DNA of 39,334 bases from an uncultured Candidatus Saccharibacteria bacterium. Its GTDB lineage: Bacteria; Patescibacteriota; Minisyncoccia; CAYRSW01. The DNA lies in NCBI GenBank assembly GCA_964427335.1, contig CAYRSW010000001.1:18101-57434 (forward strand). Reading direction: 5' to 3'. How positions within the stretch are numbered: position 1 is the stretch's first letter; the number at the start of each line of letters is the position of its first letter. The position numbers were made by a program, and so were the translations under genes. The notes beneath the pieces were generated by a model. That model did not search any database, was not told the DNA's origin, and saw only the letters and a list, made by a program, of their open reading frames with translations. Shown here piece after piece: positions 18,995 through 38,566 of the stretch.

Positions 18995-19019
18995 CACGAA
19001 TAACGAACTCCTATTCGTG
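18995..19019 (+). terminator. intra-operon hairpin (possible attenuator) before the first ATP-grasp gene
   Basis: CACGAATA (18995-19002), 9-nt loop, TATTCGTG (19012-19019), followed by TATTTTATT. Confidence 0.3.
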
Positions 19020-19031
19020 TATTTTATTAGG

Positions 19032-21310: not shown

Positions 21311-21325
21311 TTATCAAACTGATAA

Positions 21326-22234: not shown

Positions 22235-22238
22235 ATAT

Positions 22239-23111: not shown

Positions 23112-24570
23112 AACTTTTTTCCGTGAGAAAATAAAGACTCCTGTTTTTGGTGTGGGGGTCTATGCTTTTAATCGGCTGGGGTTGGCTGATGTTATTCCTG
23201 ATTTTAGAGTTTTAGCTTTGCGTTACAGTCTAGATACCGAGCTTATAGAAAAGGACATTGAAGTTTTTCCGCTTGAGAAAGGAATGGGGACTAAGCATAT
23301 CAAGGAGCCAAGGAATGCTACTACTGTCATAAGGCATCCACGGACCGAAAAATATTTAAGAAAATTTAAAAACCCAGCATTAATTGTTTATAAGTCTTCT
23401 TCCCGGATGGAAAAGGTCTGTCAGCAGCGCGGCTGGAATTTAGTTGCCGTGCCGGTAAAGTTTGGCAAAACCTTATTTGAAAATAAAGTAAAATTCCGGA
23501 GAATTCTAGAAGAAATTGGTGTTCCTGTTCCACCGGGCAGAATTAAAAAACCTCAAGCTCTTCACTATGGTCATTTGATGAATAGTTATGGGCTACCTTT
23601 TGTAATCCAACATCCGACCCGAGGAGGAGGAAAGGGAACATTTTTTATCAGAAACAAAGATGATTTTGACCAGGCTTTAAAAAAATTAAGAATAAGAATA
23701 AAAGAAGGCCAGGAATTACCCGCTAAGGAGCCAGAGGAAGTGATTGTTACTCGCTTTATCAAGGGGCCTTCGCCAAGTATTACTGGTTGTGTCACCCGTC
23801 ACGGGATTTTGTCTACTTGTCCTCAAATACAGATTTTGGATATCCCCGAACTTTTTAACCCGGAAAGAGGTTCGGGTCTTTTTTGCGGTCATGACTGGGA
23901 TTATCATTTAAGCGAGGACATTAAGAGACAAGCATATAGTATTGTGGAGAAGATAGGAAAATATTTTCAATCACAAGGATATAAAGGGATTTTCGGCCTG
24001 GATTTCGTTATGGACGAAAAAGAAGAAAAAATTTATGTCATCGAAACTAATCCCCGATTGCTGGCAACATTTCCTACTATCACTATGGTTCAAATTAGAA
24101 ATAATGAACCTCCCATTATGGCTTTTCATCTTTTAGAATATTTAAATATTGATTATGATATAGACATAGCCGAGATTAACCGATTGATAAGGCAATCAAA
24201 GCAAGGAGCCCAGGTGTTTTTGCATAATCTTACGGGAAGATGGACGAGGAATTGTGGGGAGATTAGGGCCGGTGCATACCGGCTAAATCCAAAATTAGAA
24301 TTTGTTCGTCCTGGCTACGCGTTAAAGCATTTGAAGAATGAAGACGAGTTTTTAGTTACTGAAGGAGTGTCTTTCGGAAAATCTCATTTTAGCCCCAACC
24401 GGCGGCTCTGTCGGATTCTCACCTTAAAGGGGGTCCTAGAGGATTATACTAAACTAAATGATTGGGGCCGAGAAGTGGTTACCCAAGTCTATCAAGCCCT
24501 AGATATAAGGCCAGTAAAATTTATTAAATTAAGAAAATTCTTTTCCCCACATTTTTTAGCGAAAGGGTAA
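23086..24570 (+). CDS. large ATP-grasp ligase with N-terminal pre-ATP-grasp domain
   Basis: LPFVIQHPTRGGGKGTFFI, VIVTRFIKGPS, GIFGLDFVMDEKEEKIYVIETNPRL. 26-nt overlap with the previous gene. Confidence 0.7.
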   Translation: MIKDIETLKTFFREKIKTPVFGVGVYAFNRLGLADVIPDFRVLALRYSLDTELIEKDIEVFPLEKGMGTKHIKEPRNATTVIRHPRTEKYLRKFKNPALIVYKSSSRMEKVCQQRGWNLVAVPVKFGKTLFENKVKFRRILEEIGVPVPPGRIKKPQALHYGHLMNSYGLPFVIQHPTRGGGKGTFFIRNKDDFDQALKKLRIRIKEGQELPAKEPEEVIVTRFIKGPSPSITGCVTRHGILSTCPQIQILDIPELFNPERGSGLFCGHDWDYHLSEDIKRQAYSIVEKIGKYFQSQGYKGIFGLDFVMDEKEEKIYVIETNPRLLATFPTITMVQIRNNEPPIMAFHLLEYLNIDYDIDIAEINRLIRQSKQGAQVFLHNLTGRWTRNCGEIRAGAYRLNPKLEFVRPGYALKHLKNEDEFLVTEGVSFGKSHFSPNRRLCRILTLKGVLEDYTKLNDWGREVVTQVYQALDIRPVKFIKLRKFFSPHFLAKG

Positions 24571-24579
24571 AGAGGAATT

Positions 24580-25032
24580 ATGGAGATTAAAAGAGTTATT
24601 ACTAAAAAAAAAGCAAAAGAGGTAGCTGCTTTAATTAACAAATATGCCGGATTTCCTCTTAGGAGAAGATATAATGACATTATCTCTAAAAAAGATAGAG
24701 TTTTCTTTGCTGGATTTTATAAAAGCAGGCTTGTTGGTTGTATTGGAGTAAAAAAAGATTACTTTTATTCTTCTGAGCTGATTAATCTTTGTGTAAAACC
24801 TGAATTTGGGCGTCGGGGTTTTGGTACGAAACTGATTTCAGAAATGACAAAAAGGTTCGGCGAGAAAAGGCCAATATTCTTCAGCACGATAAGAGAAAAA
24901 AACATTGCTTCTCAAGTATTATTTAGAAAACTTGGCTTTAAGAAAATAACCGAGTTCACAAATCCTGAAACCGGCCATAAACTCGGTTTATATTTTTTAA
25001 ACTATCAAAAACAACATGTACATAGGCATTGA
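24580..25032 (+). CDS. GNAT-family N-acetyltransferase
   Basis: 150 aa. Motif A LCVKPEFGRRGFGTKLISEM, then a FRKLGFK-type C-terminal region. Confidence 0.8.
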   Translation: MEIKRVITKKKAKEVAALINKYAGFPLRRRYNDIISKKDRVFFAGFYKSRLVGCIGVKKDYFYSSELINLCVKPEFGRRGFGTKLISEMTKRFGEKRPIFFSTIREKNIASQVLFRKLGFKKITEFTNPETGHKLGLYFLNYQKQHVHRH

Positions 25033-25978
25033 CATCGGCGCTACCAAAATTGCCTTCGGCAGAGTCAAAATACAAAATATTCACCCCGCCCCTCGCGGAG
25101 GGCGGGGCAAGAAATACAAGATACAAGATACTATCAAGATAGAAACCCCTGAGCAGAAGCAGAAGGCTATTGAAGTCATTAAAGAGAACATTAAGAGACT
25201 TATAACTCCGAAGGTTAAAGGCATTGGCATTGGAGCGCCTGGTTCTTTAGACCGAGGGAAAGGTATTATTCACTTCGCCCCCAATCTTTCAGGTTGGAAA
25301 AATTTGGATTTAAAAAAGCCCCTGGAAAAGGAGTTTAAGGTTCCTGTATTTTTTGACAATGATGCTAATTGTTTTGCGCTGGCTGAAAGCCGGTTTGGCG
25401 CTGCCAAAAATCTCGCTTATGTTGTTGGGTTAACTATTGGCAGCGGTTTAGGCGGAGGGATTATTATTGATGGTAGTATTTATCACGGAGCTGATTTTGC
25501 CGGAGAAATTGGGCATATGACCATAGATCCAAATGGGCCGAAGTGTGGTTGTGGCAACCGTGGGTGCTTTGAGGTTTATGTTTCTGGAGGAGCGATTGTG
25601 AGGAGATATAAAGAGTTAACCGGAGTCAAGAAAAATCCGAAGGAAATCGAAGAAGAATCATATAATCGCAGACTGAAGTCTGCTACTCCTGGAGTAGCGA
25701 CCTTAAGGTCGCGATATCCTGCTCTCCAAGTCATCAACGAAACTGGCAAGTACCTAGGCATTGGCTTGGCCAATATCTGTAATATTCTTAATCCAGAAAT
25801 GATTGTTTTAGGGGGAGGGGTGGCAAAAACAAAAACTCTCTACAAACCAGCTATCCGTGAGATGAAAAAAAGAGCCCTTCCTTTTGCTAAGGGGACTCCT
25901 GTAGTTCAATCAAAGTTGGGCGATAAGGCAGGGTTTATCGGTGCAGCACTTCTACTATCGCTTCGGCAAATTTCTTAG
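25016..25978 (+). CDS. ROK-family sugar kinase (glucokinase-like)
   Basis: YIGIDIGATK, FFDNDANCFALAE, GLGGGIII, GEIGHM, zinc motif CGCGNRGCFE. Contains two GC-rich palindromic segments (see findings). Confidence 0.85.
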   Translation: MYIGIDIGATKIAFGRVKIQNIHPAPRGGRGKKYKIQDTIKIETPEQKQKAIEVIKENIKRLITPKVKGIGIGAPGSLDRGKGIIHFAPNLSGWKNLDLKKPLEKEFKVPVFFDNDANCFALAESRFGAAKNLAYVVGLTIGSGLGGGIIIDGSIYHGADFAGEIGHMTIDPNGPKCGCGNRGCFEVYVSGGAIVRRYKELTGVKKNPKEIEEESYNRRLKSATPGVATLRSRYPALQVINETGKYLGIGLANICNILNPEMIVLGGGVAKTKTLYKPAIREMKKRALPFAKGTPVVQSKLGDKAGFIGAALLLSLRQIS

Positions 25979-26510
25979 CTGCTTTTGGTCCATTGCCAGT
26001 GACAATTTTTCCATCAACTACCACATCTTTTGCTTCATAGATTACCCCACTAGCTTCTAAAACCTTTACCATGCTTTTATCTAAAGGAGAAGACCAGACA
26101 GTAGCACGTTTTTCCTTTAAGATTCCCGTTTTTGCCACAATGGCTGGAGCAATACAAATTGCTCCAATTATTTTATTAAGATCGGCTGCTCTCTGGGTAA
26201 TCCTAGTGATTTCTTTATCACCCATATAATTTTGGGCTCCTGGTCCACCAATAAAGACAATAGCATCATATTCCTCTGGTTTAAGGTCTTCTAAAATAAA
26301 ATCAACCAAAACCTCTCCACCGTCAGCCCCTTGAGCAGTTCCTGCTTCAGAGCTTACTGTTTCCACAGTTGCTCCAGCGTTTTCAAAAATTTCTTTAGGG
26401 GTGAAGTATTCTTCGTCTCTAAAATCTTTATAAGCCACAATCATGGCTATTTTCTTGCCCCGCACCTTCTCTTGTAAAATGGTGCGGGGTTTATCGCTTA
26501 TATCAGGCAT
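25935..26510 (-). CDS. DJ-1/PfpI-family protein
   Basis: KKIAMIVAYKDFRDEE, AIVFIGGPG, nucleophile-elbow-like IGAICIAPAIVA. Converges on and overlaps the ROK gene by 44 nt. Confidence 0.8.
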   Translation of the reverse strand: MPDISDKPRTILQEKVRGKKIAMIVAYKDFRDEEYFTPKEIFENAGATVETVSSEAGTAQGADGGEVLVDFILEDLKPEEYDAIVFIGGPGAQNYMGDKEITRITQRAADLNKIIGAICIAPAIVAKTGILKEKRATVWSSPLDKSMVKVLEASGVIYEAKDVVVDGKIVTGNGPKAAKKFAEAIVEVLHR

Positions 26511-27738
26511 AGGTTTTGATTAATTTTATTTTTATAAATCGTCGTTTTCCCACTTGCACTACTATCCCATCTTTTATCTTAATCACTTTCTTCCAATCCT
26601 CAACTATTTTATCATCAATTTTTACTCCTTTTTGCTGGATTAATCTTCTGGCTTCGGCTTTAGAGGGAACCATTCTTAGCTTCACCAATAAATCTAAAAT
26701 ATTACAACTCGTAATTCTTAATTCATGATTCCTAATTTTAGACGGCTTCTTGCCGGTTTTAAATATCCTCTCAAACTCTTTTTCTGCTTCCTGTGCCTTT
26801 TTGGCCCCACAATATATGGTGACGATTTCTCGGGCTAATCGTGCTTTAGCGTCTCGAGGATTAAGTTTTTTAGATTTCAGCCCTTTTTTAATTGAGTCAA
26901 TTTCTCTAAGAGAAATTTCAGTGCATAGCTCGAAACAAGTAATAATAACTTCGTCTGGTAAGGCCATTATTTTACCATACATTTCTTTAGGAGAATCGTC
27001 TAGGGCAATAAAACTACCTTCACTTTTACTCATTAGTTTCTTGCCCGTCTTAGGGTTGACCAGAAGTTTGGTTGTAATAACAAACTTTTCTTTATTTTTG
27101 TAGACCTTCATCAAATCCCTACCAACCAACATATTAAAAGTTTGGTCATTTCCTCCTACTTCAATATCAGCATTTAATGCTACGGAATCATAGCCTTGCA
27201 GTAGAGGGTAAAGGAATTCGTGCAAATAAATTTCTTCTTTTCTTTTTAACCGCTGCTTAAACATATTTCTTTTAATTATCTGCTGGTAGGTGAAATTAGA
27301 GGCTAGTTTATTGATTTCTTTGAGGGTTAATCGTTCAAGCCACTGACTGTTAAACCTGAGTTCCGCTGGGTTTTTAGATGAGTTAAAATTTAGAAATTTT
27401 CCTACTTGTTTCTGGTAGGTTTTAGAGTTGTCCCGGACTTCTTCTTCTGTTAAAGCTTTCCTGGCTGTTAATCTTCCCGTGGGGTCACCGATACGAGCAG
27501 TGAAATCACCAATGAGAAGAACGACCCGATGTCCTAACTTTTGAAAATCCCTTAAAAGAAAATAATTAGTTGAGTGCCCCAAATGCAAATGCGGAGCAGT
27601 AGGATCTACTCCATGGTAAATAGCCAGTCTCTTTTTTGACTCTAGCAATTCTTTTAGGGTTTCTTTAGAGGGATAAATTTTTTCTATTCCTCTATATCTA
27701 AGAATTTCTTTAATTTTAGCCGGAGTTATGTCGGTCAT
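26503..27738 (-). CDS. tyrS: tyrosine--tRNA ligase
   Basis: YHGVDPTAPHLHLGH (HIGH), KLMSKS (KMSKS), C-terminal S4-like domain SKAEARRLIQQKGVKID. Confidence 0.93.
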   Translation of the reverse strand: MTDITPAKIKEILRYRGIEKIYPSKETLKELLESKKRLAIYHGVDPTAPHLHLGHSTNYFLLRDFQKLGHRVVLLIGDFTARIGDPTGRLTARKALTEEEVRDNSKTYQKQVGKFLNFNSSKNPAELRFNSQWLERLTLKEINKLASNFTYQQIIKRNMFKQRLKRKEEIYLHEFLYPLLQGYDSVALNADIEVGGNDQTFNMLVGRDLMKVYKNKEKFVITTKLLVNPKTGKKLMSKSEGSFIALDDSPKEMYGKIMALPDEVIITCFELCTEISLREIDSIKKGLKSKKLNPRDAKARLAREIVTIYCGAKKAQEAEKEFERIFKTGKKPSKIRNHELRITSCNILDLLVKLRMVPSKAEARRLIQQKGVKIDDKIVEDWKKVIKIKDGIVVQVGKRRFIKIKLIKTYA

Positions 27739-27871
27739 GTTTCCACTATATCAAATTCTACTTAAAAACACAATTTTTACATAGTTCTCTTTTCTCTTTC
27801 CTCTTTCTTCTTTCCTATCTCCTATCTCGTTTAAACCTCATTTAAGAGCTAGATCTCTCTTAGCTTCTTTT

Positions 27872-27908
27872 CTTTATATTCTAGACGACCGCACTCATTA
27901 TAAGAGAA
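27872..27908 (-). repeat. 37-nt repeat copy M1; contains the -10 TATAAT of the tyrS promoter
   Basis: Minus-strand reading TTCTCTTATAATGAGTGCGGTCGTCTAGAATATAAAG, 28/37 identical to copy M3. Confidence 0.8.
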
Positions 27909-27940
27909 AATTTTGTAAGGAAAGCGGGGGTAGATATTAT

Positions 27941-28798
27941 TTATTTTTTTGTATTCTTTTGGTTGTTCTCTTTCTGTTCTGCTTTTTTACTTCGTTGAAG
28001 AATTTTTTGGTAAAGTTTATAGGCTTTCTTGCCATACCAATCATCGGGTAAAAGATCTCCTGGTAACTGTGGATCATCTTTTAAGATATTCAGATATTCC
28101 ATTTGTATTTTAAGTTTATCAACTTTAAGCTCCTCTACTTTTTGAGAAAGTTTTTTATATTTAGAGAAGAATTCTTTATATTTTTTGTTAATTTCTTCAA
28201 GGTGCCAAACTCGACCGGCTAATTCCTGGGAGTCTTCCCGGCCTAGTTTATTGGTAACTGAAGGGATAACCCAACTTTCCATATTATGAAACTCAACTAA
28301 ACTCTCAATATTGGCTAGAAAATTGTAAGGAGAAATCCAAACACTGTCTTGGAGCCGACCAAAGCCTAATTTCTTTAATTTTTCTCTGAAGGCATTTCTT
28401 TTTATTCTCCGATCTTCCGGGATGTCAAAGGCTACTATATACCATTTATCATCCCAGGTGGATGGTTTTTTGTACTCAGGCAAAATACTCTTTAGTCTTT
28501 TCCATCCCTCTTTAGTTAATTTCCAATCTGGATCAAGCCAACCTTTTTCTCTTAGTTTATAAAAGTTACGATATAGCGTATTTGGATCGTAACCTCCAAG
28601 CCGTAAATCCAACCTTTTCATCATAGACATTGATCCCGCGGAACCTAGAGGACTGATTTCTTCTGCAAATCCTACCCAAAGAAGAATAAAATCTTCTAAA
28701 CTGCGGACTAGCCCAGAACTTAATTTAATAACTTTTTTCCTAATCGGTCTCCTTTTGGATTTTACTTTCTTGTTTTTATTTTTTATTCCTTTTTGCAT
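27941..28798 (-). CDS. PaaX-like transcriptional regulator (winged-helix + Cas2-like core + helical C-domain)
   Basis: LYRNFYKLREKGWL (wHTH-like) and WDDKWYIVAFDIPEDRRIKRNAFREKLKKLGFGRLQDSVWISPYN (PaaX/Cas2-like ferredoxin core). The start is moved to the internal ATG 28798 (MQKGIKNK) because the consensus promoter lies inside the longer track ORF. Confidence 0.6.
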   Translation of the reverse strand: MQKGIKNKNKKVKSKRRPIRKKVIKLSSGLVRSLEDFILLWVGFAEEISPLGSAGSMSMMKRLDLRLGGYDPNTLYRNFYKLREKGWLDPDWKLTKEGWKRLKSILPEYKKPSTWDDKWYIVAFDIPEDRRIKRNAFREKLKKLGFGRLQDSVWISPYNFLANIESLVEFHNMESWVIPSVTNKLGREDSQELAGRVWHLEEINKKYKEFFSKYKKLSQKVEELKVDKLKIQMEYLNILKDDPQLPGDLLPDDWYGKKAYKLYQKILQRSKKAEQKENNQKNTKK

Positions 28799-28810
28799 TG
28801 TTTTATTTCT

Positions 28811-28847
28811 TTTTCTTATACGATATGCGGTCGTCGGTATTGTAAGG
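28811..28847 (+). repeat. 37-nt repeat copy M2 (inverted relative to M1 and M3), inside the 5' UTR of the PaaX-like gene
   Basis: Plus-strand reading TTTTCTTATACGATATGCGGTCGTCGGTATTGTAAGG, 27/37 identical to M3. Confidence 0.8.
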
Positions 28848-28855
28848 TTATCTGT

Positions 28856-28885
28856 ATTATAAGAGAAGTTATAGAAATGTGTCAA
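28856..28885 (-). promoter_or_regulatory. consensus sigma70 promoter of the PaaX-like gene
   Basis: Minus strand TTGACA (28885-28880), 18-nt spacer, TATAAT (28861-28856). Predicted 5' UTR of about 50 nt. Confidence 0.7.
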
Positions 28886-28983
28886 GGATTTTAGATTTTG
28901 TTTTTCGTTTTTTGTGTCAGTTTTTTAGATGTATTTTAAAATAGTTTGACAGGGATCGATGAGCCTCGTTTTCTCTCCTTTTT

Positions 28984-29020
28984 CCTTATATCCAAGACGA
29001 TCGCATAGTGTATAAGAGAA
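28984..29020 (-). repeat. 37-nt repeat copy M3
   Basis: Minus-strand reading TTCTCTTATACACTATGCGATCGTCTTGGATATAAGG. Confidence 0.8.
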
Positions 29021-29264
29021 TAAAGAATAAAAAATAAAAAACTGACTCTGCGTAAGATGAGATACATAGATAACACCTTGAAAATTAAAAATGAGAGGCC
29101 CTATTACCAGAGAAAAATCGTTGTGGGTTATCAACAATAAGAGTATAGCTGTTTGGTGGAAGGATAATTTCGCCCTGATGTAAGCTTAAACCGTGATTAA
29201 CGTCATCTTCATAAAATCTCCAACCAGTTTAATCATGTTTGAGGTATCATCTCCATATTATACA

Positions 29265-29295
29265 CAAAAAATACCAAAGCTCAAACCTCTGGTAT
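29265..29295 (-). terminator. intrinsic terminator ending the long minus-strand T4SS-like operon
   Basis: Minus-strand RNA AUACCAGAG, 7-nt loop, CUUUGGUAU (9 bp, one G-U), followed by UUUUUU. Confidence 0.65.
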
Positions 29296-29332
29296 TATTT
29301 TTACGCCTCCACGGGTTACGCACTACTCTACT

Positions 29333-30535
29333 CTATTCCATATATATCGACTCTGCCTGAATAGAATACAATTTTCCGTCTCTTTGGTTGGTGAAGAAGA
29401 GGGTATCTTCTTCTTTGGACAAAAAGAGATTAGTAGCGTCGTAGGACACTGCGAAATCTTCAAGAGTAATAAGTAGAGTTTTTTCGCCGGTGGTAGTGTT
29501 TATTTTGAAAAAACTGTCTTGAGTGGAGACTCTTCTGGCGTACCAATCATCAGGTATAACAATATCGTCCCTAAGCGGTGCGGGTACAGCGCAAAAGAGA
29601 GTAATGTTATCTTCGGACCAGACACATTTTTCAACAATAGTTGGAGTTTCTAATCGTTTTATTCCATATACCCCCTCTCCAATTAAAGCCAGTTCGGTTA
29701 GAGTGCCGGCTCGGTAAACAGTGTAGGAAATAATTGCAACATTTCCTTCGGGCGACCAGAGGATGTTAAGACCGTAATAACCGCCGATAACATGAATTGG
29801 CTTCCCGCCGTCAAGAATTATACTATTAATAGATGATTCTTGATAGCCGCTGGGAATGGGATAAAAAGAAACTTTATTCTTTTTTGGGATAGGGGTAAGT
29901 TCTGCTTTTATAGCGTAGGAAAGAATTTCTTTATAATTTGTTCCATCGGGGTCGGAAACATAGATGCCGCCCGACCTTTTTTCCAGGTCGGTATATTTAT
30001 AAATAATTTTATCCTGCTCCGGATGCCAGATGGCAGCAGTGATGTGTTTATCTAAAGCCCAAGTTTTGCCAGTAGCTTGGTCGTAAGAATAAAATCGTTC
30101 TCCCCCGGTTTTGGAATCGTAAGAGGCGATTAGAGCTTTATCTTTATCTTTAGACCAGAGGACTTTAGTTAAATCCCCTACTGCTCCAAGAGAAAGTTGT
30201 GCTGTCCCGCTTCCGTCTGGTTGGGCTTGCCAAATATTGCCTTCTTTTGGGTCAAAATATTTTATTTTATCTGTTTTATCCAAAATAGCGCCAATAGTTT
30301 GTTTTTCAGCTAAGGATTCAAGGCCCTTAATTTCTCCTTCGGCTTCTTCGGCAACTTCTCCTTCTTTGGGCACAAATTCTCTTTCTTCGGCTTCCGGGAG
30401 CTTAGCTTCCCCCCCTTTTTCTGTAGTTGGTGTTGCCTCCGGCTTTTCTTGGACCAACCAATTATAAACCAGCATACCGATGATGAGTACAAATAGGGCG
30501 ATAATACTAATAATGAGGATTTTTTTAGTATTCAT
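29333..30535 (-). CDS. membrane-anchored secreted beta-propeller protein (TolB/PD40-like repeats)
   Basis: N-terminal TM ILIISIIALFVLIIGMLVY, Glu-rich linker, repeated ...PDGS/DPDGT... blades (QAQPDGSGTAQLS, YVSDPDGTNYKEI, WSPEGNVAI). Confidence 0.55.
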   Translation of the reverse strand: MNTKKILIISIIALFVLIIGMLVYNWLVQEKPEATPTTEKGGEAKLPEAEEREFVPKEGEVAEEAEGEIKGLESLAEKQTIGAILDKTDKIKYFDPKEGNIWQAQPDGSGTAQLSLGAVGDLTKVLWSKDKDKALIASYDSKTGGERFYSYDQATGKTWALDKHITAAIWHPEQDKIIYKYTDLEKRSGGIYVSDPDGTNYKEILSYAIKAELTPIPKKNKVSFYPIPSGYQESSINSIILDGGKPIHVIGGYYGLNILWSPEGNVAIISYTVYRAGTLTELALIGEGVYGIKRLETPTIVEKCVWSEDNITLFCAVPAPLRDDIVIPDDWYARRVSTQDSFFKINTTTGEKTLLITLEDFAVSYDATNLFLSKEEDTLFFTNQRDGKLYSIQAESIYME

Positions 30536-30540
30536 TTTAT

Positions 30541-31389
30541 TTATTCGACATACCCTTTACATTCATGTGCTGATCTATCTCTGCACTCCCAATGTTTTCC
30601 TTCTTCTCCTCCAAAATCTGCACCAGGATCAAAGCAGGATTTACGGCAGGCCTCTAAAGTTTTACAACCTCCCGAATACTCCCCTCCGTATCTTTTTGTC
30701 CAGCACAGATAGACTCCCCGGCAAGATTCGTTCTCTTTACTACATTTATCAGATTCAGCACCTGCTACTCTTTTGCATATACCATCGGTTGGGTCGCAAT
30801 ATAGGTACGTACTGCAAGGTCTCCCTGCCTCTGCACAGTCACTCGCGCCTGCCTTTCCCATTATTTTTTCACATATTCCTGTTGTCTGATTACATTTATA
30901 ATAAATACAACTTTCTCCTACACTCGTACAATTATCTTCATCTCCTTGGTTTTCTTGTTCATTAGGGAATCTTTTACATGCATAGCCCTCGCCACAGGCT
31001 AAATGAGTATTTGATTCAGGTAGTTCTATTTCTGTAACAGTTAATTTTTTTAAACTAACCAATTCGGGATTGATAGTGTGTAGGATTAGCCAAGAGGTAA
31101 GGACTAGAACTAGACCGAGGATAGCGCTGGTAATCTGACCTTTGGCCTCAGAGATTTCCGCTTCATTCCCAGCCGCAGTCATATACCTGATGCCGCCAAT
31201 AATGATAAATAGCATGGCAATAACGCCGACAATAGCCAGACCAAAGAGATAAAGAGCTTTAATATAATCGCTGATGTCGGTGATTTCTCCAGCGCCAGGA
31301 ATAGGAACCATTGGTTCGTAACCCAGAGCGGGTGTTGCCAATAGAAAAGTCGTGAGGACCATTAGGATAATAAAGATAAGTTTTTTCAT
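30541..31389 (-). CDS. VirB2/TrbC-like T4SS pilin core fused to a C-terminal 18-cysteine domain
   Basis: Signal peptide MKKLIFIILMVLTTFLLATPALG and two hydrophobic helices separated by IRYMTAAGNEAEISEAKGQ (pilin-like hairpin). The last ~150 aa hold 18 Cys in repeated C-x6-C-x4/5-C-x6-C units. ATG 31389 gives an ATGA overlap with the upstream stop. Confidence 0.55.
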   Translation of the reverse strand: MKKLIFIILMVLTTFLLATPALGYEPMVPIPGAGEITDISDYIKALYLFGLAIVGVIAMLFIIIGGIRYMTAAGNEAEISEAKGQITSAILGLVLVLTSWLILHTINPELVSLKKLTVTEIELPESNTHLACGEGYACKRFPNEQENQGDEDNCTSVGESCIYYKCNQTTGICEKIMGKAGASDCAEAGRPCSTYLYCDPTDGICKRVAGAESDKCSKENESCRGVYLCWTKRYGGEYSGGCKTLEACRKSCFDPGADFGGEEGKHWECRDRSAHECKGYVE

Positions 31390-34300
31390 TGTTTTTTTCT
31401 TCTTCCCGGATAACTCCAAGGTCTTGTTAACGAGAATACAACGGCCATTAGGGCAAGTATTCCTAACCCAGCCAATCCTATTTTAAGAGCTAACTTAAAA
31501 GATTCAGGAATGAAGAAGCCGACAGCGGCAAACATTGAACCGAAGAAACCGAGAGTCATTTCTTTACACACTCCGTCTTCGCAGTTTCCTGAACAGCAAT
31601 CTTCGTTAGTGCTGCAGTTTTCTCCTACTACCTTACAGGGAGTCTCTACTACCTCTAAAATTATTTCATCAGTCGCTTTTCGGCCGGCTGGGTTTTTATC
31701 ATCTCCTATTGCTGCGGCGGCAAGACCAACTGTATATCGCGAGCCCCTTTCTTTTGCTACCAGCAAGGTAAGAAATTTTCTATCTGCGCTCAATCCGGCT
31801 GAAATTCCCAGTGTTGCTAAATCTTCACTTGGTACTTTCGCTCCATCAATAGCCCAGCTATAGGAAAGAGAACCATTAGCAAAAGTTGAATTTATTGGCC
31901 CCGGGGAAGCCTGGAGAGTTATCATGTCTTCGGTTCTTACATCAGCAATAACCAGCGGCGTAGTCGGTCTTCTGGTATCAGGGATAGGGATAATTTTTAC
32001 ATCCGGCGCATAGACAAAGAGCTCTACTTCTTTAGTGGCAGTCTCTGTTCCATCAATATTAGTCCCCGTCACCTTTAGTTTATACTTACTTCCGGCCGGT
32101 TTATCCACCACTAGTCGGAATTCCTGCGGACTGCCCGGGACGTTCTTTTGTCTTTGGCCGTCCAAATACCAGACATAAGCGCAGTAGCTAGCCGGATTAT
32201 CAACATTTTCTTTAGTGCACTCAAAAGTAGGTTGAGCTGTTACGGTGAAAATATCTCCGGATAAAAGATTAGGCGGCTGTGTACCGTGGTTGAATTGAAG
32301 TTCAATTTTACTGCCTGCTTCAATAATTAACTTTCCAGAGGCCTTTCTCTTTTTATAATCCTCCACTCTTTCTGCAGCAAATACCTCTACTCTGAATGTT
32401 CCCGAAACCGCCGGTGTAAATTTGAAAGTCCTCCTTCCCTCTAAGGGCCCACTGCCGCCTGGCGGCTCAAGGCCAGTAGCTTGGTCAGCGATGCCTATAA
32501 AGTCACCTGTTGTAGTGTCTTTATAGGTCAAGACCCAGTTGTAGAAAAGATGATTATAATCTAATTGAGAAAAATAAGGAGTAGCGAATATCTCTACCGG
32601 TTCGCCAACAGAAGGATAGAGACCTTCAGTAGAAAGCTTTACTTCCAGCTCTTTTACTTCTTCTGACTCAATATATAATTTGAAATATTGATAGATGGTT
32701 TTACATATTTCAACATGAACAGATTTTTCTTTTGCTCGGCAAACATCAGCATCTGTGTCAGTAGCATTTTCTCTTTCCTCGTAGGTTCCACTGCCTATCC
32801 AGCAGGCTGGCCATTCATCCATTTGGTCTCCATCAGCAAGATTTTCTAGAGGTCCCCATTCAGCCGGGCAGTCAGCAGATTTTACGTCAGTTAATTCTTC
32901 GCCGCTTAAAGCAATGTAGGTTTTGTCAGGACAATTAACTATTTGTTTTTTCTGAGAAATACCTAAGGCAAGGGTGTCTAATCTGTAATATTTAACATCT
33001 TGAGGTAAATCCTCGGGGACAGTGAAGGTTATTTTACTCTGTCCCAAGCCAATTATGTCCTGTTCGTCTCTATACCCATCTTCATCCGTATCTCCTTTAA
33101 TCGGGCTAGAGCCAAAAACATATTCTTCGTAATTAGTCATGATTCCGTCTCCGCTTTTGTAATAAGTATCAGTTACTGGATTATAAGCATCCGGGGCAAT
33201 GTTTCGAGGAGAAGAAGGGAGTTGGGAAGGTTGTTCCGTGTATGTGCTAGGAGCCGACTCTGGCGGTGCATGAGGCCAGTCGTAGCTACGATTAACCTCG
33301 GTTATATGAGCCAATAGACCTGCGTCTTCAGGTGCACACCCATAGCCATTCCAAGCATACATACCATAACCATCTTTTTGCGTTCCAATGCCATATTCTT
33401 GCCAGACTTGCAGCATATCGTCCACGATACCCGTGGGATTTAACTGACCTCCATTATAAAATGCCTGCACAATTGCTGTTCCTCCAATCCCGCCACTGCG
33501 ATCCCCGCAGACATTACAGGAGTTACGCAAGCGGGGCTCCCAATTGGGAGTATCTCTGTGGTAAGGATAGGCATCAAAACCAGCGTGGTCAAAGGCGTTA
33601 GGATTCCAATTTGCCTCATCTTCGATATGAGCTGAAAAAACTGTAAACAAATCATGGTTGGGGTCCGCGGCTTTAATGGCATTATACCACTCCTGTTGCT
33701 TTGCCCCAGAAAAAGCGCTGCCTTTTATGTCGGGCTCATCCAAGAAATACCAGGCTGCCACTGCTGGATGATTCTTCCAGCGATTTACAAAATTAATAGC
33801 ACCACTTAAATCGATATGGTCTTTATCGTAAAAATAGGCGTGAAGGTCAGGTATTACCCATAAACCTTTAGCTAAACATTCATCAAGGAGGGCTTCTGTT
33901 GGGGTTACATAACAGCCAACAGTATTAAAACCTGCGGCAAGGATATCATCTACGTTGAATCCCCAAGCATAAGCGAGCTTAACACCATCCCAAGTGAATG
34001 CTCCTCCTGATGAGGAAGCAGAGCCTTGGTAGGAAAATTTTGACACCTCACCATAGATGGCAATATCTTTATGGGCGTACACCCTTACTTTAAGAGAGTA
34101 AGTTCCGTCATATTCGGCTGTGTAAGCGCCGGGACCATTGATGACTCTGGGTCCGGAGTCCACATCAGTCGGGTCTGGATTATAAAGAACATAAATTGCT
34201 CCGTCGGAGGTTCCCTTTTCTGGAAAATCCATTATTTCTGCAGGAAACGTTACTTCGGCTTGTCCGCCCCTTCCACCTTCACCGCCTTCACCGCCGGTAC

Positions 34301-35195
34301 CGCCTTCACCGCCGGTACCGCTGCCAGAACCAGTATCTCCTTCTCCCCATCCGCTTCCACCACTTCCACCCTCTCCTCCTTCTCCACCTTCTCCGGCTCC
34401 ACCACCCTCTACTTCAGTTGATGGATAATAAGTGATAGTGCCGCTTAATTCAATCTCATCTCCCTTTTTAAGAGTAAAAGTTACTCCGGCGTGCCAACTC
34501 TCTCCAACGCACCCTTCTTCTATAATATTTCCAAGTTCATCATAAATCTTATATGGCGTACAATGAGCTGTGACAGAGGCGATTACCCCTTTTGTCATAA
34601 TAGAGCCGCTTGTATTACTAGTACTCTTAGCTATATATCCATCTTCATCAAAATCTTCATCGGGGCCGTGAGAAAGGTCGCCGAAATAGAACATTTCCCA
34701 ATCGTCATCCATTCCGTCTCTATCAGAGTCACGAGTGGTAGTTCTTGTTACCACCATACTATCAGCATGGTATTTCCATTCAGGTGAGCCGAAATTGGCA
34801 TCAGCATAATCCATAATATAGAAAATTCCATAATCGTTTTTAAGTCCCGGTACTGCTGGGAGGGCTGGGTCTAGCTTAGAGACATCGGGAACAAAGAAAA
34901 GTTCATCACCGGCCATAAGCGGCTGGATGCTGGTGTTATTTATAAACCACATATAATAGAGGTCATCTGTTTTGCCGGTATAGTATAAAGCAGTAGCAAA
35001 CACGCTTACCTCATCGCCTCTTTTTGGTTCGGTAGGGACAGTTTTGAAATCCACTCGCGGCCAAGGATTCTGCCTAAGGTTTTCTATTTTTCCTTCTCTT
35101 ATCCCCTTTTTGTAATAATGGCTAAAATCACAGCCGCTGAAGAGGGTGATAGCCAGGATGATAAGGATTAGGAATGTGAGTTTTCTGGTTGACAT
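31386..35195 (-). CDS. 1269-aa multidomain surface lipoprotein (Ca-binding TSP3-like motifs, Gly-rich linker, TIM-barrel glycosidase-like region, Ig/PKD-like repeats, knottin-spaced Cys motif, C-terminal TM anchor)
   Basis: Lipobox-like LFSGC. DSDRDGMDDDWE and GDTDEDGYRDEQD. GGX tract at aa 261-312. WGFNV...FNTV...WYFLDEPD (clan GH-A-like). Recurrent Y-x-W-x-hydrophobic Ig-like signatures. PCKVVGENCSTNEDCCSGNCEDGVCKE. Two terminal hydrophobic helices. Confidence 0.6.
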   Translation of the reverse strand: MSTRKLTFLILIILAITLFSGCDFSHYYKKGIREGKIENLRQNPWPRVDFKTVPTEPKRGDEVSVFATALYYTGKTDDLYYMWFINNTSIQPLMAGDELFFVPDVSKLDPALPAVPGLKNDYGIFYIMDYADANFGSPEWKYHADSMVVTRTTTRDSDRDGMDDDWEMFYFGDLSHGPDEDFDEDGYIAKSTSNTSGSIMTKGVIASVTAHCTPYKIYDELGNIIEEGCVGESWHAGVTFTLKKGDEIELSGTITYYPSTEVEGGGAGEGGEGGEGGSGGSGWGEGDTGSGSGTGGEGGTGGEGGEGGRGGQAEVTFPAEIMDFPEKGTSDGAIYVLYNPDPTDVDSGPRVINGPGAYTAEYDGTYSLKVRVYAHKDIAIYGEVSKFSYQGSASSSGGAFTWDGVKLAYAWGFNVDDILAAGFNTVGCYVTPTEALLDECLAKGLWVIPDLHAYFYDKDHIDLSGAINFVNRWKNHPAVAAWYFLDEPDIKGSAFSGAKQQEWYNAIKAADPNHDLFTVFSAHIEDEANWNPNAFDHAGFDAYPYHRDTPNWEPRLRNSCNVCGDRSGGIGGTAIVQAFYNGGQLNPTGIVDDMLQVWQEYGIGTQKDGYGMYAWNGYGCAPEDAGLLAHITEVNRSYDWPHAPPESAPSTYTEQPSQLPSSPRNIAPDAYNPVTDTYYKSGDGIMTNYEEYVFGSSPIKGDTDEDGYRDEQDIIGLGQSKITFTVPEDLPQDVKYYRLDTLALGISQKKQIVNCPDKTYIALSGEELTDVKSADCPAEWGPLENLADGDQMDEWPACWIGSGTYEERENATDTDADVCRAKEKSVHVEICKTIYQYFKLYIESEEVKELEVKLSTEGLYPSVGEPVEIFATPYFSQLDYNHLFYNWVLTYKDTTTGDFIGIADQATGLEPPGGSGPLEGRRTFKFTPAVSGTFRVEVFAAERVEDYKKRKASGKLIIEAGSKIELQFNHGTQPPNLLSGDIFTVTAQPTFECTKENVDNPASYCAYVWYLDGQRQKNVPGSPQEFRLVVDKPAGSKYKLKVTGTNIDGTETATKEVELFVYAPDVKIIPIPDTRRPTTPLVIADVRTEDMITLQASPGPINSTFANGSLSYSWAIDGAKVPSEDLATLGISAGLSADRKFLTLLVAKERGSRYTVGLAAAAIGDDKNPAGRKATDEIILEVVETPCKVVGENCSTNEDCCSGNCEDGVCKEMTLGFFGSMFAAVGFFIPESFKLALKIGLAGLGILALMAVVFSLTRPWSYPGRRKKQ

Positions 35196-35234
35196 ACGAA
35201 TTTTAATGCGAATTTAATGCGGATTATGCGAATT
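35196..35234. repeat. four direct RCGRAT repeats at 9-13 nt spacing between the 124-aa gene stop and the lipoprotein start codon
   Basis: ACGAAT (35196), GCGAAT (35209), GCGGAT (35220), GCGAAT (35229), embedded in TTAATGCGAAT / TTAATGCGGAT / TATGCGAAT. Confidence 0.7.
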
Positions 35235-35236
35235 GT

Positions 35237-35611
35237 TTACTTGAAGAGTAATTGTAGGCCCTTCCAAATTGCCCAAGGACCCTGGGCGAGAGCAGCAAAT
35301 ATTGACTCTTTTGCTTCTGGGACAAGACTAGCTACTCCGATTAACACAACTATAACTATTATAACAAGACATCCCCAAAAACCAATAAAGCCAACTACTG
35401 CCCCACCAATAGTTACAACTATCCATTTAGTGGTAGCCATAAGAGCTTTAAGGAAAACTTTTTTAAAAGCTTTTAAGGCAAGTTCTTTTGCTTTTTCAGC
35501 TGCCTTTTCAGCTATTCTTGCTCTTGCCTCTTCTGCTAATGTGGCGAGCCGAGACTGCCTTCTTTCTTCTTCTAATTTTTCATACTCTTCATACTTTTCT
35601 TCCTCATCCAT
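35237..35611 (-). CDS. small membrane protein: acidic/coiled-coil N-terminus plus two TM helices, function unknown
   Basis: 124-aa ORF in the operon frame, 4 nt after the virB4-like stop. WIVVTIGGAVVGFIGFWGCLVIIVIVVLIGV. The overlapping plus-strand ORF 35217-35633 is judged spurious. Confidence 0.5.
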   Translation of the reverse strand: MDEEEKYEEYEKLEEERRQSRLATLAEEARARIAEKAAEKAKELALKAFKKVFLKALMATTKWIVVTIGGAVVGFIGFWGCLVIIVIVVLIGVASLVPEAKESIFAALAQGPWAIWKGLQLLFK

Positions 35612-35615: not shown

Positions 35616-37418
35616 TTATCCTTCCCTCGCTAATTCCTCCTTTGCTCTTTCTATCTCCAGAAGTTGGGCTGGGTCAGTGGTAATTACCTGGTCTTCAGAA
35701 TAGGAAGCGACCACTTTAATAGCCGCTCGTTTGAGTCCGGCGAAAAATATTCCCTCGCCAATATTTGACTCAAGCAGCAAATATTTTTCTTCATCAGAAA
35801 GATAAAACGTTTGAGCCACCAAATCTACAGAGGCCGGAGACTGTTTCATTAAAACTTGCAAAGAAGAATTGGTAATAATTGGTTTTCCATAACGACTTTC
35901 AAGAAAATCGGAAACATCTTGAGTAATAGTTGTTACCCCCAGGTAATATTTTCTTGCTCTTTTGGCAATGCCAAAGAGAAAAGAAGCCGACTCTTCATTT
36001 CTCATCATCCACCAAGCTTCGTCAATAACAAGGATTCGTTTTTTAAGCTCCCTCCTGACAACATTCCAGATGTAATGAAGAATTACATACATAGCCATAG
36101 GTCTTAGCACTTCTTCCATATCTCTAATACTGAAGACCACTAACTTTTCTTTAATGCTGACATTGGTTGGCATATTAGCAAATCCTGCAAAAGTACCGGT
36201 AGTATATTTTTTGAGTCGTTCTATTAGAGATTCCGCGCCTTTCATTCCTTTTAATACTTTTTCAAGGTCGGACATAGTCGGAGGAGTTGCTTTAGAGAAG
36301 TCACTCTCCCCAGTTATATCTTTTAGGGCATAAGTTTGATACAATGCCTCGTCGATTAAGGACTCTTCTTTGGGTGAAAGCCCGCCAAGCATTAATTTTA
36401 AAAGCCCGGTCAATTCTATGATATTAGCCCTCAAAATATCAGCAGGGGATTCTTCTTCAGAAGCTTGGGGAAGGTCAAATGGATTAAGATGTGCCCGAGA
36501 TGTAAGCGATATGGGGATAAAACTTCCTCCGGCAACTTCAGCCACGTACTTATATTCATTTTCCGGGTCAATAACAATAATTTCAGTATCAAGCATTAAG
36601 CTTCTCAAAATTTCTAACTTAATGGCGTATGATTTTCCGCTTCCGGCTTTCCCGAACAAAGCCATGTTCGCATTTTCCATGGAAAATCGGTCAAAGAGGA
36701 TAAGGGAGTTATTGTGACGGTTTATTCCATAAAGAACTCCTTGGTCGGAAGTGAGGTCTGAAGAAACAAAAGGAAAAGTAGTAGAAAGAGAACCGGTGCT
36801 CATATTATTAGAAATTGCCAGCTTATCTAAGCCAAGCGGCAAGGTGGAGACAAACCCAGGTTTTGTTTGAAAGATTGCCTCCTTTGTGTAAATGAGTCCT
36901 CCGGAAAGTATGGATATTACTTGAGAGCTGGTTTTATTAAGCTCTTTTAAAGAATCAGCGTAAACGGTTATATAAAGAGAGTACCTGAAGAATCTTTCAG
37001 TGCCCTGCTGGAGCATATCTCTTAAAGATTCGGCATCTTCGTAGGCAGTTTCAAGCATTGGGTCTCGAACCATTCCTTTTTCTCGATTCATAATAATCTG
37101 TGATTCAATCTGCGCTACCTTCTTTTTGAGATTTTTTAAAATTATGTGAGTTTCCGCCGGATGGATGAACATAGCAATGTCCATACCGGCGTCCAAATTA
37201 ATAACCGGAGAAAACCAGGTAGTTTGGAGATAGCGAGGGTAAGTATAGATAAAGAGAGTTCTTAAAAATTTTGAGCCAATCCTTATGTAATTAGCATTAA
37301 CCTTTAAGGCAGAAGGAGCGAGGATATCCTTAAGAGTTGCTACTCCTTTATAGTAGATTTTCTCTGCCTCTAAAAGTTTAGCTTCCTCTTTGGTTCTTTT
37401 GATTTTGAGTTTAATCAT
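35616..37418 (-). CDS. virB4: VirB4/TraE-type type IV secretion ATPase
   Basis: Walker A LFGKAGSGKSY, Walker B ILVIDEAWWMM, RKYYLGVTTITQ. N-terminal DILAPSAL...YIRIG...RTLFIYTYPRYL typical of Gram-positive VirB4 homologues. Confidence 0.85.
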   Translation of the reverse strand: MIKLKIKRTKEEAKLLEAEKIYYKGVATLKDILAPSALKVNANYIRIGSKFLRTLFIYTYPRYLQTTWFSPVINLDAGMDIAMFIHPAETHIILKNLKKKVAQIESQIIMNREKGMVRDPMLETAYEDAESLRDMLQQGTERFFRYSLYITVYADSLKELNKTSSQVISILSGGLIYTKEAIFQTKPGFVSTLPLGLDKLAISNNMSTGSLSTTFPFVSSDLTSDQGVLYGINRHNNSLILFDRFSMENANMALFGKAGSGKSYAIKLEILRSLMLDTEIIVIDPENEYKYVAEVAGGSFIPISLTSRAHLNPFDLPQASEEESPADILRANIIELTGLLKLMLGGLSPKEESLIDEALYQTYALKDITGESDFSKATPPTMSDLEKVLKGMKGAESLIERLKKYTTGTFAGFANMPTNVSIKEKLVVFSIRDMEEVLRPMAMYVILHYIWNVVRRELKKRILVIDEAWWMMRNEESASFLFGIAKRARKYYLGVTTITQDVSDFLESRYGKPIITNSSLQVLMKQSPASVDLVAQTFYLSDEEKYLLLESNIGEGIFFAGLKRAAIKVVASYSEDQVITTDPAQLLEIERAKEELAREG

Positions 37419-37422: not shown

Positions 37423-38076
37423 CTATTCCTCTATTTCCAATTGGCTTATTTCTGCCATTCCTTTTTCGTGCGGTAGCCCTGGATTATAAAGAGTGTAAAA
37501 AAGTTCGATTAGCTCTTGGGTATTAAGTGGTGCCATCCTAACACCCACTCCTTCTAAGTTCGTTACTACGTGCTCTACTCTCTGGAGAAGTTGGTCCTTG
37601 TATTTGGCAAATCTTTCCTTTTTGAGTTTTGCTACCTTTATTGAGCCTAAAAAAACCTTTAATTTTTCTGGGAGCCCTTCTCTTTTTGCCTCTATAGGCG
37701 CAAAAGGTACCACTACATAAAAAGTCTTTTTCATAATATTCGCCATCTCAACTAGTCCCCGGATAAACTCTCTATATTCGGCTGTTTGAATTTTAAGGAG
37801 TTCATTAGTTTGGCTTTTTTCTCTTTCTTCTAAAGTTTCCAGATACGGGGTGATGTTGAGCCGACGGGAATTAATTACTATTTGGACGGGAAAATCTAGC
37901 GAATTTAGGAAGGACTGGTAATGATAAATAATTGCTTCTTGCTCTTTAGTAGATTTCAGAGCAAAGTTTATTGCCGAAGTCATAAGGATTATTCTAAGCG
38001 TACCGTCTTTGAGAACAACGGTTCCTTCCTTTATTTCTTCAATGTCCAAAAATTGTTGAGTAGAACCAGGTTTCAT
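37423..38076 (-). CDS. soluble T4SS-associated protein; N-terminus resembles the N-terminal region of some VirB4-family ATPases (tentative)
   Basis: FLDIEEIKEGTVVLKDGTLRIILMTSAINFALKSTKEQEAIIYHYQSFLNSLDFPVQIVINS. ATG 38076 (MKPGSTQQ) gives an ATGA overlap with the PrgI-like stop. Confidence 0.4.
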   Translation of the reverse strand: MKPGSTQQFLDIEEIKEGTVVLKDGTLRIILMTSAINFALKSTKEQEAIIYHYQSFLNSLDFPVQIVINSRRLNITPYLETLEEREKSQTNELLKIQTAEYREFIRGLVEMANIMKKTFYVVVPFAPIEAKREGLPEKLKVFLGSIKVAKLKKERFAKYKDQLLQRVEHVVTNLEGVGVRMAPLNTQELIELFYTLYNPGLPHEKGMAEISQLEIEE

Positions 38077-38477
38077 AGTTGTTTCTTTCCCCCCGTATCC
38101 AATGTCCATGCTAAATCCTTTAATCTACTTTGACTTACAATCTTCAAGGGCTCTTTAGAGGGAGAAGGTTTTGCCCCCTTTTTAATTTTTGGCGCTTGGG
38201 AAGTCCTTTTAAAAAGATAGAACTTTGGTTGAACAAAAAACTGTGATATGGAGGAAAAATATGCAGAAAAAGACCTACCATAGGGTTTGTAAAAGGCAAA
38301 AGCAGCGCAGATTATAAGTATCGGCAGGCCCAAAAGAAAGGCAAGGGCGACGGAAACGAGATAGGCAAGAAAGATAAATATACCTATTCCAGCAGCCAAA
38401 AAGGCAAACTGCTTTAAGGTTAAAGGTCCGATAATCTTATCTTCTACCTCAATGAATTTTGGAACAGTATATTGCAT
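38073..38477 (-). CDS. PrgI-family (VirB3-like) T4SS membrane protein
   Basis: MQYTVPKFIEVEDKIIGPLTLKQFAFLAAGIGIFIFLAYL followed by a second TM. Start placed at the internal ATG 38477 because the upstream part of the track ORF is a structured GC-rich repeat region. Confidence 0.65.
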   Translation of the reverse strand: MQYTVPKFIEVEDKIIGPLTLKQFAFLAAGIGIFIFLAYLVSVALAFLLGLPILIICAAFAFYKPYGRSFSAYFSSISQFFVQPKFYLFKRTSQAPKIKKGAKPSPSKEPLKIVSQSRLKDLAWTLDTGGKKQL

Positions 38478-38487
38478 GTTTATAGAA

Positions 38488-38566
38488 GCGGAAAGACGCG
38501 GATAGTTCACCCGCCTAAATTTTTGTGAAGCAAAAACTTTGGCGGGCAAGCGCGGAAAGACGCGGA
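38488..38566. repeat. GC-rich intergenic element: 15-nt direct repeats flanking a 16-bp hairpin
   Basis: GCGGAAAGACGCGGA at 38488-38502 and 38552-38566. Hairpin CCCGCCTAAATTTTTG (38510-38525) / CAAAAACTTTGGCGGG (38531-38546), 14 of 16 paired. Confidence 0.8.

Follow-up and report, generated by a model that had tools for sequence, protein, structure and literature searches.

Patescibacteria carry chromosomal, relaxase-less, monoderm-type type IV secretion systems (T4SSs), with VirB2-like pilins encoded near dnaA (Quinonero-Coronel et al. 2025, PMC12102498). The pilins described so far, such as those in the array of Southlakia epibionticum ML1, belong to the Pfam family PF18895; they are short and occur as arrays of 2-11 divergent paralogs. 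The divergence and the essentiality of these arrays have been published (PMC12102498, PMC10633639 and the Patescibacteria passages of PMC12857230), as has the requirement of both the T4SS and its pilins for the epibiotic growth of Southlakia (PMC10633639 and, again, those passages of PMC12857230); the role of the Patescibacterial T4SS has been called 'completely unknown' (PMC11665869). Here we describe a member of this pilin family from an uncultured Candidatus Saccharibacteria bacterium, encoded in a stretch of 39,334 nucleotides (nt) that we refer to as the window (GCA_964427335.1, CAYRSW010000001.1, positions 18,101-57,434). It shares with the described Patescibacterial pilins the core family, the signal peptide, the two-helix hairpin and a chromosomal position beside VirB4, PrgI and TrsD. 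In contrast to their arrays, the window locus has a single pilin gene, whose product ends in a tail of 164 amino acids (aa) with 18 Cys. Flanked on both sides by conserved sequence, this tail acts as a hypervariable cassette, a feature absent from an earlier reading of this DNA (hereafter, the original prediction). The variation of the window pilin is allelic, with whole tails replaced between strains, whereas that of the array pilins is paralogous.

On sequence grounds, the membership of the protein in PF18895 is secure: the Pfam model (T4SS_pilin) scores 44.3 bits over residues 62-114, well past its cutoff of 26.6 (E=1.9e-11), and is likewise matched by 23/23 of the collected relatives. Hydropathy marks a signal peptide at residues 1-25 and hydrophobic helices at 39-74 and 84-108, while AlphaFold2 predicts helices at 39-71 and 76-106 with a predicted local distance difference test score (pLDDT) >90. 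In the junction that follows, N107-P108-E109-L110 is invariant in 8/8 close relatives, and an NPxL motif is seen again in distant ones. Weak cross-matches link the pilin to DUF4134, DUF6112 and a 'pilin-like conjugal transfer protein' of a Mycoplasma integrative conjugative element (ICE). With the classical pilins VirB2, TrbC, TraA and TrhA, it has in common a signal peptide, a hydrophobic helical hairpin with a polar loop and a T4SS locus; it differs from them in leaving their model PF04956 unmatched and in a host that is monoderm-like. Its relation to classical VirB2 is only indirect. Mature classical conjugative pilins measure ~65-80 aa and lack an ectodomain. The original prediction had proposed a VirB2-like pilin. 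PrgI, TrsD-like and VirB4 genes upstream on the same strand place the gene in a T4SS operon, and the pilin assignment stands as far as the hidden Markov model (HMM), the signal peptide, the predicted hairpin and the operon go; PF04956 and the solved pilins, to which we return below, remain unmatched.

A core HMM built from the 23 relatives matches a single open reading frame (ORF) in the whole window; the C-terminus of the giant 1269-aa protein encoded upstream and the 124-aa and 177-aa neighbors, which we had considered as further pilins, were accordingly rejected. Read from a TTG, the pilin ORF (30541..31419, minus strand) gives 292 aa. However, the true start is almost certainly the ATG at 31389, because this shares an ATGA with the TGA stop of the 1269-aa gene upstream and because gene callers yield an identical 282-aa product: the public-data protein P0001 is exactly this ATG form.

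All the Cys of the pilin (18/18) fall in its last 151 residues (142-292 of the TTG reading; window 30544-30996), precisely the count and span that the original prediction had given. Cys thus amounts to 11% of the tail, as against 0.77% in the other 33 window ORFs. The successive inter-Cys spacings are 5, 15, [6, 4, 6], 11, [6, 5, 6], 10, [6, 5, 12], 5, 3, 16 and 7, the square brackets enclosing three units. Where the original prediction saw three copies of C-x6-C-x4/5-C-x6-C, units 1 and 2 conform, whereas unit 3 ends in x12 and meets the pattern in its first half alone. The motifs that it quoted from the tail, CTSVGESC, CAEAGRPC and CSKENESC, are all there, and CKVVGENC does occur in the neighboring 1269-aa protein. 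In shuffled versions of the tail, full units number at least two in 1.3e-4 of the trials, and half units (C-x6-C-x4/5-C) at least three in 6e-4. A recent tandem duplication is ruled out as the source of the units, as there is no repeat at the nucleotide level; they are therefore old duplications.

The behavior of the tail as a cassette emerges from the comparison of related loci. Broader scans of genome and metagenome contigs yielded just three and two loci, respectively, and word-indexed protein searches five proteins (core-only) and one protein (tail-only). Locus L001, which is syntenic with the window and additionally has a VirB6-like TrbL_3 gene, is 95.6-96.6% identical to it in the VirB4 region and an ATP-grasp cluster, 88-89% across both the giant gene and the core of the pilin, and 93% in the gene downstream of the pilin; yet window 30533-31035, which corresponds to the tail, has no detectable nucleotide homology to L001. 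The boundaries are sharp in strains that are 88-97% identical over the operon. Codon 118 (…NPELVSLKKLTV) is the last to show homology to L001 (88.8%) and L003 (92.8%), and the alignments pick up again 9 nt beyond the stop of the pilin gene, where the next gene begins. The flanks match L001, L003 and L007 at 83-93%, with these two breakpoints in each, and L007 alone keeps a weak match (70%) to part of the tail. Among the eight closest proteins, the cores are 80-99% identical, whereas identity between the tails is 14-34%, except for a single pair that reaches 67%. The core is under purifying selection (dN/dS 0.01-0.17), while the dN of the tail exceeds that of the core by a factor of at least ~4 and often >50. 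For the pair of window and L003, dS is 0.26 in the core as against a saturated 2.7 in the tail, whose dN is 0.81. A tail evolving faster in place would share the dS of its core; therefore, the tail has been replaced by a distant allele. Further, the relatedness of tails is discordant with that of cores: P0002 and P0006 are 99% identical in the core and 21% in the tail, and P0002 and P0005 are 89% and 67% identical, respectively. Two differing tails (P0001 and P0005) co-occur in one JGI sample, 3300008517. We also looked for silent tail cassettes comparable to pilS; a six-frame scan of the window for Cys density returned the tail, a Cys knot in the giant protein and out-of-frame noise only, and this possibility was set aside. 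On a larger scale, identity to L001 falls from ~96% to 82-93% across 24971-35582, a segment with the giant gene, the pilin and the genes for tyrosyl-tRNA synthetase (TyrRS), DJ-1 and ROK; the hypervariable tail therefore lies within a broader, more divergent island.

Such a sharp discontinuity could in principle be an artefact in which a short pilin and a separate Cys-rich gene were joined by a frameshift, by a chimeric assembly or by an error in ORF calling, and both the missing nucleotide homology of the Cys-rich part to relatives and an A7 run at the junction might be cited in its favor. We regard the probability of such an artefact as practically negligible. A second contig (L008) carries the same 282-aa ORF, 100% identical over 1251 nt; five further loci from different samples encode the giant protein, the pilin and the ~400-aa protein in the same order, with the core and the Cys-rich tail in a single uninterrupted ORF in each; no start codon occurs within the ORF close to the junction; and the A-run is not conserved among relatives. 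Sought in homologous loci, the fusion proved to be one ORF in each of the orthologous loci inspected, and its presence as one intact ORF in six related loci therefore shows it to be neither a frameshift nor an assembly artefact. A variant of the same idea, slippage at the A7 run with a TAA in the +1 frame at the core/tail border, giving a short and a long pilin, was likewise rejected: the run is A5 in L007 and L018, the window holds 44 A/T runs of at least 7, and off-frame stops are everywhere in such AT-rich DNA.

Profile searches place the tail in no known family: no Pfam model matches it even at E≤10 and none in NCBIfam. Among 1.84 billion representatives searched exhaustively with phmmer, there is one significant tail relative, P0004 (E=4e-6), the sole other match being a spurious Asp/Gly-rich repeat protein. 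AlphaFold2 models each Cys unit as a beta-hairpin, with a pLDDT that is 76-88 in units 1 and 2 and lower outside these two. Five tails can be aligned at 27-37% identity and 11 of their 15 invariant columns are Cys; the Cys count is even in 16/18 tails. A Cys unit common to all tails was considered and dropped, as enrichment of C-x5/6-C-x4/5-C is confined to P0004, P0009, one Saccharibacterial protein and the window pilin itself. Judged by sequence, the tails across PF18895 relatives are heterogeneous: distant members have other Cys-rich tails with differing frameworks, and P0004 has an extra Cys-rich insert at its mature N-terminus.

In other Patescibacteria (L004:4124-5308, L005:5045-6664 and L011:3385-4719), the PF18895 core is fused to ectodomains of other kinds, namely an SLT lytic transglycosylase, Big_2 Ig-like domains and a weakly matching (sub-threshold) VanY-like domain with an N-terminal DUF7107. 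The PF18895 hairpin appears to be a general carrier for ectodomains, be they Cys-rich, SLT, Ig-like or VanY-like. The premise of the original prediction that T4SS pilins come without an appended domain fails within the Patescibacterial PF18895 family, where such tails recur. The array pilins of L004, L005, L006 and L010 are 108-175 aa long with a Cys-free tail of at most 27 aa. The window pilin, with 164 aa past the core, is unlike these pilins that have nothing after the second helix; given the other tailed members, this trait is typical of the arrays rather than defining. On three contigs (L011 1-4722, L013 6041-10831 and L014 1-3636), 2-3 long Cys-rich PF18895 genes are interleaved with those for the subunits of pyruvate:ferredoxin oxidoreductase (PFOR) in the conserved order POR_N, pilin, TPP_enzyme_C, pilin; in L013, a DsbA-like gene lies 2 kb upstream. 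In L015 (2434-4341), the gene for P0009, a 384-aa pilin-core protein with 24 Cys in its tail, is preceded at a distance of 4 nt by a DsbA/thioredoxin-like gene, an arrangement that suggests an oxidoreductase co-expressed with its substrate.

Taking these features together, the reading that we favor, with a confidence that is evenly balanced, is that a VirB2-like T4SS subunit here carries, as its tail, an exposed contact domain that is braced by disulfides and swapped by recombination. Briefly, the Sec signal peptide and the two hydrophobic helices would constitute a conserved membrane or polymerization core, with the inter-helix loop directed toward the cytoplasm, or toward the lumen if the protein polymerizes. 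In the membrane form of VirB2 and TraA, this loop is cytoplasmic. In solved conjugative pili, it points to the lumen (PMC11722321). With the loop cytoplasmic or lumenal, the mature N-terminus and the C-terminal 164 residues would therefore lie outside the cell; the N-terminal Cys-rich insert of P0004 fits exposure of both termini, and the SLT, Big_2 and VanY-like ectodomains on other PF18895 cores support an outward-facing tail. The tail itself would fold into short beta-hairpin units held by up to nine disulfides, providing the pilin subunit with a compact, stable ectodomain. The even Cys counts, the 11 of 15 invariant columns taken up by Cys and the DsbA-like gene beside P0009 support such a disulfide framework, and Candidate Phyla Radiation (CPR) bacteria are reported to be enriched in MdbA-like oxidoreductases and VKOR (bioRxiv 10.1101/335083). 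Whole tails would be exchanged by homologous recombination between the pilin core and the start of the downstream gene, with the Cys framework alone retained across the exchange. The tail is most likely the surface contact or recognition part of the T4SS; as such, it would set or diversify the host or target cell surface engaged, and it may help evade phages or host defenses that recognize it. A stronger version, that of a 'bristled' conjugative-type pilus made by a monoderm, ultra-small bacterium, in which every VirB2-type subunit bears a strain-exchanged, disulfide-knotted domain and the pilus surface sets the host range or the evasion of phages and defenses of an obligate epibiont, we find doubtful; such a pilus would be without parallel in characterized T4SSs.

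Several results weigh against the favored reading. On the side of the core, PF04956 does not match the pilin at E≤0.1 (the three matches to it among the 23 relatives are all sub-threshold, with a best E of 0.0019), a profile search of PDB sequences recovers no solved pilin at E≤10, and Foldseek with the full model, a query that includes the low-confidence tail, returns generic helical hairpins (E≥0.6) and no solved pilin. To our knowledge, a VirB2-type filament whose subunits each carry a domain of 164 aa is without precedent. On the side of the tail, neither Foldseek against PDB and BFVD nor a PDB sequence search finds a significant relative; its models are of low-to-moderate confidence (pLDDT 40-88), and a binding function is not readable from them; the saturated dS leaves positive selection beyond demonstration; and the Pfam annotation of the window ORFs includes no thiol oxidoreductase. 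Moreover, some distant tailed pilins are encoded outside T4SS loci. Finally, polymerization of PF18895 proteins into a pilus has no direct demonstration, and the Patescibacteria passages of PMC12857230 call their pilus formation only 'potential'.

Polymerization is also the sole point on which the favored reading differs from one where the PF18895 module is a non-polymerizing membrane anchor or channel-associated subunit, and the tail a wall-spanning spacer or cap or a tethered adhesin; the exposure and variability of the tail are common to both. We consider this anchor unlikely, although monoderm (MPF-FATA-like) T4SSs lack pili (PMC12102498), the distant tailed members outside T4SS loci sit by DsbA or inside PFOR operons, the fusions of the core to SLT or VanY-like cell-wall enzymes fit anchoring, and the weak match to the Mycoplasma ICE protein points the same way. 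The purifying selection on the core (omega 0.01-0.17, with 80-99% identity) is very strong, beyond the need of a generic anchor, and the short, tail-less paralog arrays of other Patescibacteria, essential in Southlakia, fit a structural polymer better. A different proposal would have the tail as a pro-domain or cargo that is cut off at or just after the NPELVSLKKLTV junction, giving a short pilin and a free disulfide-rich toxin, effector or signal. Removal of a C-terminal segment has a parallel in the processing of TrbC and TrhA, which lose 27 and 5 residues, respectively, with cyclization at an Asn (PMC11722321); conservation of the junction is sharp and includes an invariant Asn; a short family member, P0022, stops ~12 residues past NPEL; small hypervariable disulfide-rich peptides are typical of secreted toxins and the neighboring giant protein has a knottin-like framework; and cutting the tail off would relieve the crowding expected if each subunit kept its domain. 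We nonetheless judge it quite unlikely. No S26-type (TraF/TrhF/LepB) maturation peptidase occurs among the Pfam annotations of the window ORFs or of L001, although another part of the genome may encode one, nor is there another peptidase gene in the window or the syntenic 20-kb locus; no variable immunity-like gene lies downstream, the next gene being 88-93% identical at the nucleotide level (75% in L007); the enzymes and Ig-like domains on other PF18895 cores are apparently tethered rather than released; and a C-terminal cut leaves the N-terminal-side Cys-rich insert of P0004 unexplained.

The weakest of these three rivals, and a very improbable one, is that the Cys bind metal ions or clusters, making the tail a metal-binding or redox module suited to an anoxic habitat. 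The very high Cys density, the anoxic groundwater in which many CPR bacteria live and the interleaving of some distant tailed pilins with PFOR and ferredoxin genes would agree with it. However, the tail has a single short-spaced Cys pair (C-x3-C), no CxxC pair and few His; the Cys counts of most tails are even; the neighbor of the tailed pilin in L015 is DsbA-like; and the predicted beta-hairpin units are typical of disulfide-rich mini-domains.

More distant parallels sharpen what is distinctive about this gene. In the D2/D3 domains of flagellin and the C-terminal disulfide-bonded regions of type IV pilins, a hypervariable, recombination-prone exposed domain likewise rests on a conserved helical polymerization core, and variation is concentrated in just this exposed part. 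The likeness is one of analogy and not of homology: the folds and assembly machines are unrelated, and polymerization of the window pilin is putative. As in knottins of the inhibitor cystine knot (ICK) type, conotoxins and spider toxins, the tail combines a conserved Cys framework with hypervariable loops; unlike them, its units have four Cys instead of six, no fold match was found, and it is tethered to a membrane protein. With polymorphic-toxin and contact-dependent inhibition (CDI) cassettes, the gene shares a conserved N-terminal part, a sharp junction motif and a swappable C-terminal module. It departs from them in lacking a variable immunity gene, since the downstream gene is conserved, and a detectable toxin domain, and in that a common Cys scaffold is kept in the tails of 5/8 close relatives. 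Within the CPR, the Peribacteria have large Cys-rich, strain-variable extracellular proteins with a proposed role in attachment (Anantharaman et al. 2016, PMC4736985). These resemble the tail in being very Cys-rich and strain-variable but average ~1,650 aa and have no link to a T4SS or a pilin core. The Pam pilus of the CPR is an Ig-fold system unrelated to the window pilin.

The features of the locus are collected in Table 1. The genes run on the minus strand in the order PrgI, TrsD-like, VirB4, 124-aa membrane protein, giant protein, pilin and 400-aa protein, with no relaxase or coupling protein in view. The origin genes yidC, rnpA, dnaA and dnaN occupy window 12883-17226, ~15-24 kb from the T4SS operon, a distance that agrees with the origin-proximal T4SSs reported for Patescibacteria, and the remainder of the window is housekeeping; the T4SS match and the relatives make the organism apparently Patescibacteria-like. 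The 400-aa downstream gene is conserved (88-93% at the nucleotide level, 75% in L007), and the N-terminal sequence of its product is equal in 4/4 loci compared. The N-terminus of the giant protein resembles a lipobox (LFSGC), and the protein has a linker of low complexity rich in Gly/Glu/Ser; toward the C-terminus comes C-x6-C-x5-CC-x3-C-x4-C, followed by a hydrophobic helix and an RRKKQ tail. This knot gives sub-threshold matches to several toxin families (21.5 bits vs 23.2), and L001, L003 and L007 all retain the motif, the first half of which is similar to unit 2 in the pilin tail of P0004 (CKVVGENCST vs CDVVGTSCST). A PDB sequence search of the giant and downstream proteins gave nothing informative.

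Table 1. Features of the pilin gene and its operon (positions in the window)
Feature	Position	Strand	Basis or remark
Pilin gene, 282 aa	30541..31389	-	ATG at 31389, stop codon 30541-30543
Predicted Sec signal peptide MKKLIFIILMVLTTFLLATPALG, A-x-G cleavage motif	31321..31389	-	hydropathy, helix 2-21, sequence; putative cleavage site
Two-helix hydrophobic pilin core, residues 39-106, loop TAAGNEAEISEAKGQ	31072..31275	-	PF18895, AlphaFold2, hydropathy
Conserved junction NPELVSLKKLTV	31036..31071	-	nucleotide homology to related loci extends up to here
Hypervariable Cys-rich tail, 164 aa, 18 Cys, isoelectric point 4.9	30544..31035	-	sequence, nucleotide comparison
Cys unit 1, CTSVGESCIYYKCNQTTGIC, C-x6-C-x4-C-x6-C	30871..30930	-	predicted beta-hairpin
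Cys unit 2, CAEAGRPCSTYLYCDPTDGIC, C-x6-C-x5-C-x6-C	30775..30837	-	predicted beta-hairpin
Cys unit 3, CSKENESCRGVYLCWTKRYGGEYSGGC, C-x6-C-x5-C-x12-C	30664..30744	-	pattern met by first half only
PrgI (VirB3-like)	38073..38549	-	
TrsD / VirB4 N-terminal-domain-like protein	37423..38109	-	
VirB4-like T4SS ATPase, CD1110 family	35616..37418	-	E=5.5e-113
124-aa membrane protein	35237..35611	-	
1269-aa putative surface lipoprotein	31386..35195	-	translationally coupled to pilin gene, conserved in relatives
Knottin-like six-Cys framework CKVVGENCSTNEDCCSGNCEDGVC in giant protein	31566..31637	-	sub-threshold conotoxin/spider-toxin Pfam matches, conservation
400-aa membrane-anchored protein, no assigned family	29333..30535	-	5 nt past pilin stop; 3' flank of cassette

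Elsewhere in the window, a gene for a PaaX-like protein with a Cas2-like central domain (27941-28885, minus strand) is absent from the otherwise syntenic L001, and the adjoining 5' part of the TyrRS gene (27081-27738) cannot be aligned to L001 by blastn. The ATP-grasp cluster (18340-25032, plus strand; 95.6% identical to L001) comprises 5-6 ATP-grasp/RimK-like genes, a 7TM_transglut membrane protein and a GNAT acetyltransferase; it may represent a system for peptide ligation or polyamino-acid synthesis. At 8352-10951 (minus strand), a pair of paralogous Wzy_C (O-antigen ligase-like) genes, side by side, adjoins genes for a polysaccharide flippase and a class A penicillin-binding protein with Big_7 Ig-like domains. 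The lowest GC content of the window (0.28) falls at 15-16 kb, by the origin gene set.

Cys-rich or other C-terminal domains are linked to these pilins in none of PMC12102498, PMC10633639, PMC11665869 and 10.1101/335083, and the Patescibacteria passages of PMC12857230 do not mention Cys-rich pilin tails. What is new here is a known pilin family carrying an unclassified, cassette-like, probably disulfide-rich ectodomain, for which we found no precedent in open-access full text. Southlakia is the one genetically tractable Patescibacterium, and its T4SS pilins are essential for its epibiotic life. That the sole fast-changing part of a pilin would be a compact, outward domain, swapped between strains with ~96% identity in other regions, suggests that this domain is what meets the host cell and makes the tail a plausible, testable candidate for the specificity of host-cell contact. 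The use of PF18895 as a carrier of ectodomains alters how 'pilin' calls in CPR genomes are to be read, and the tails represent a large unclassified pool of small, probably disulfide-rich folds with no relatives in Pfam, PDB or Foldseek searches.

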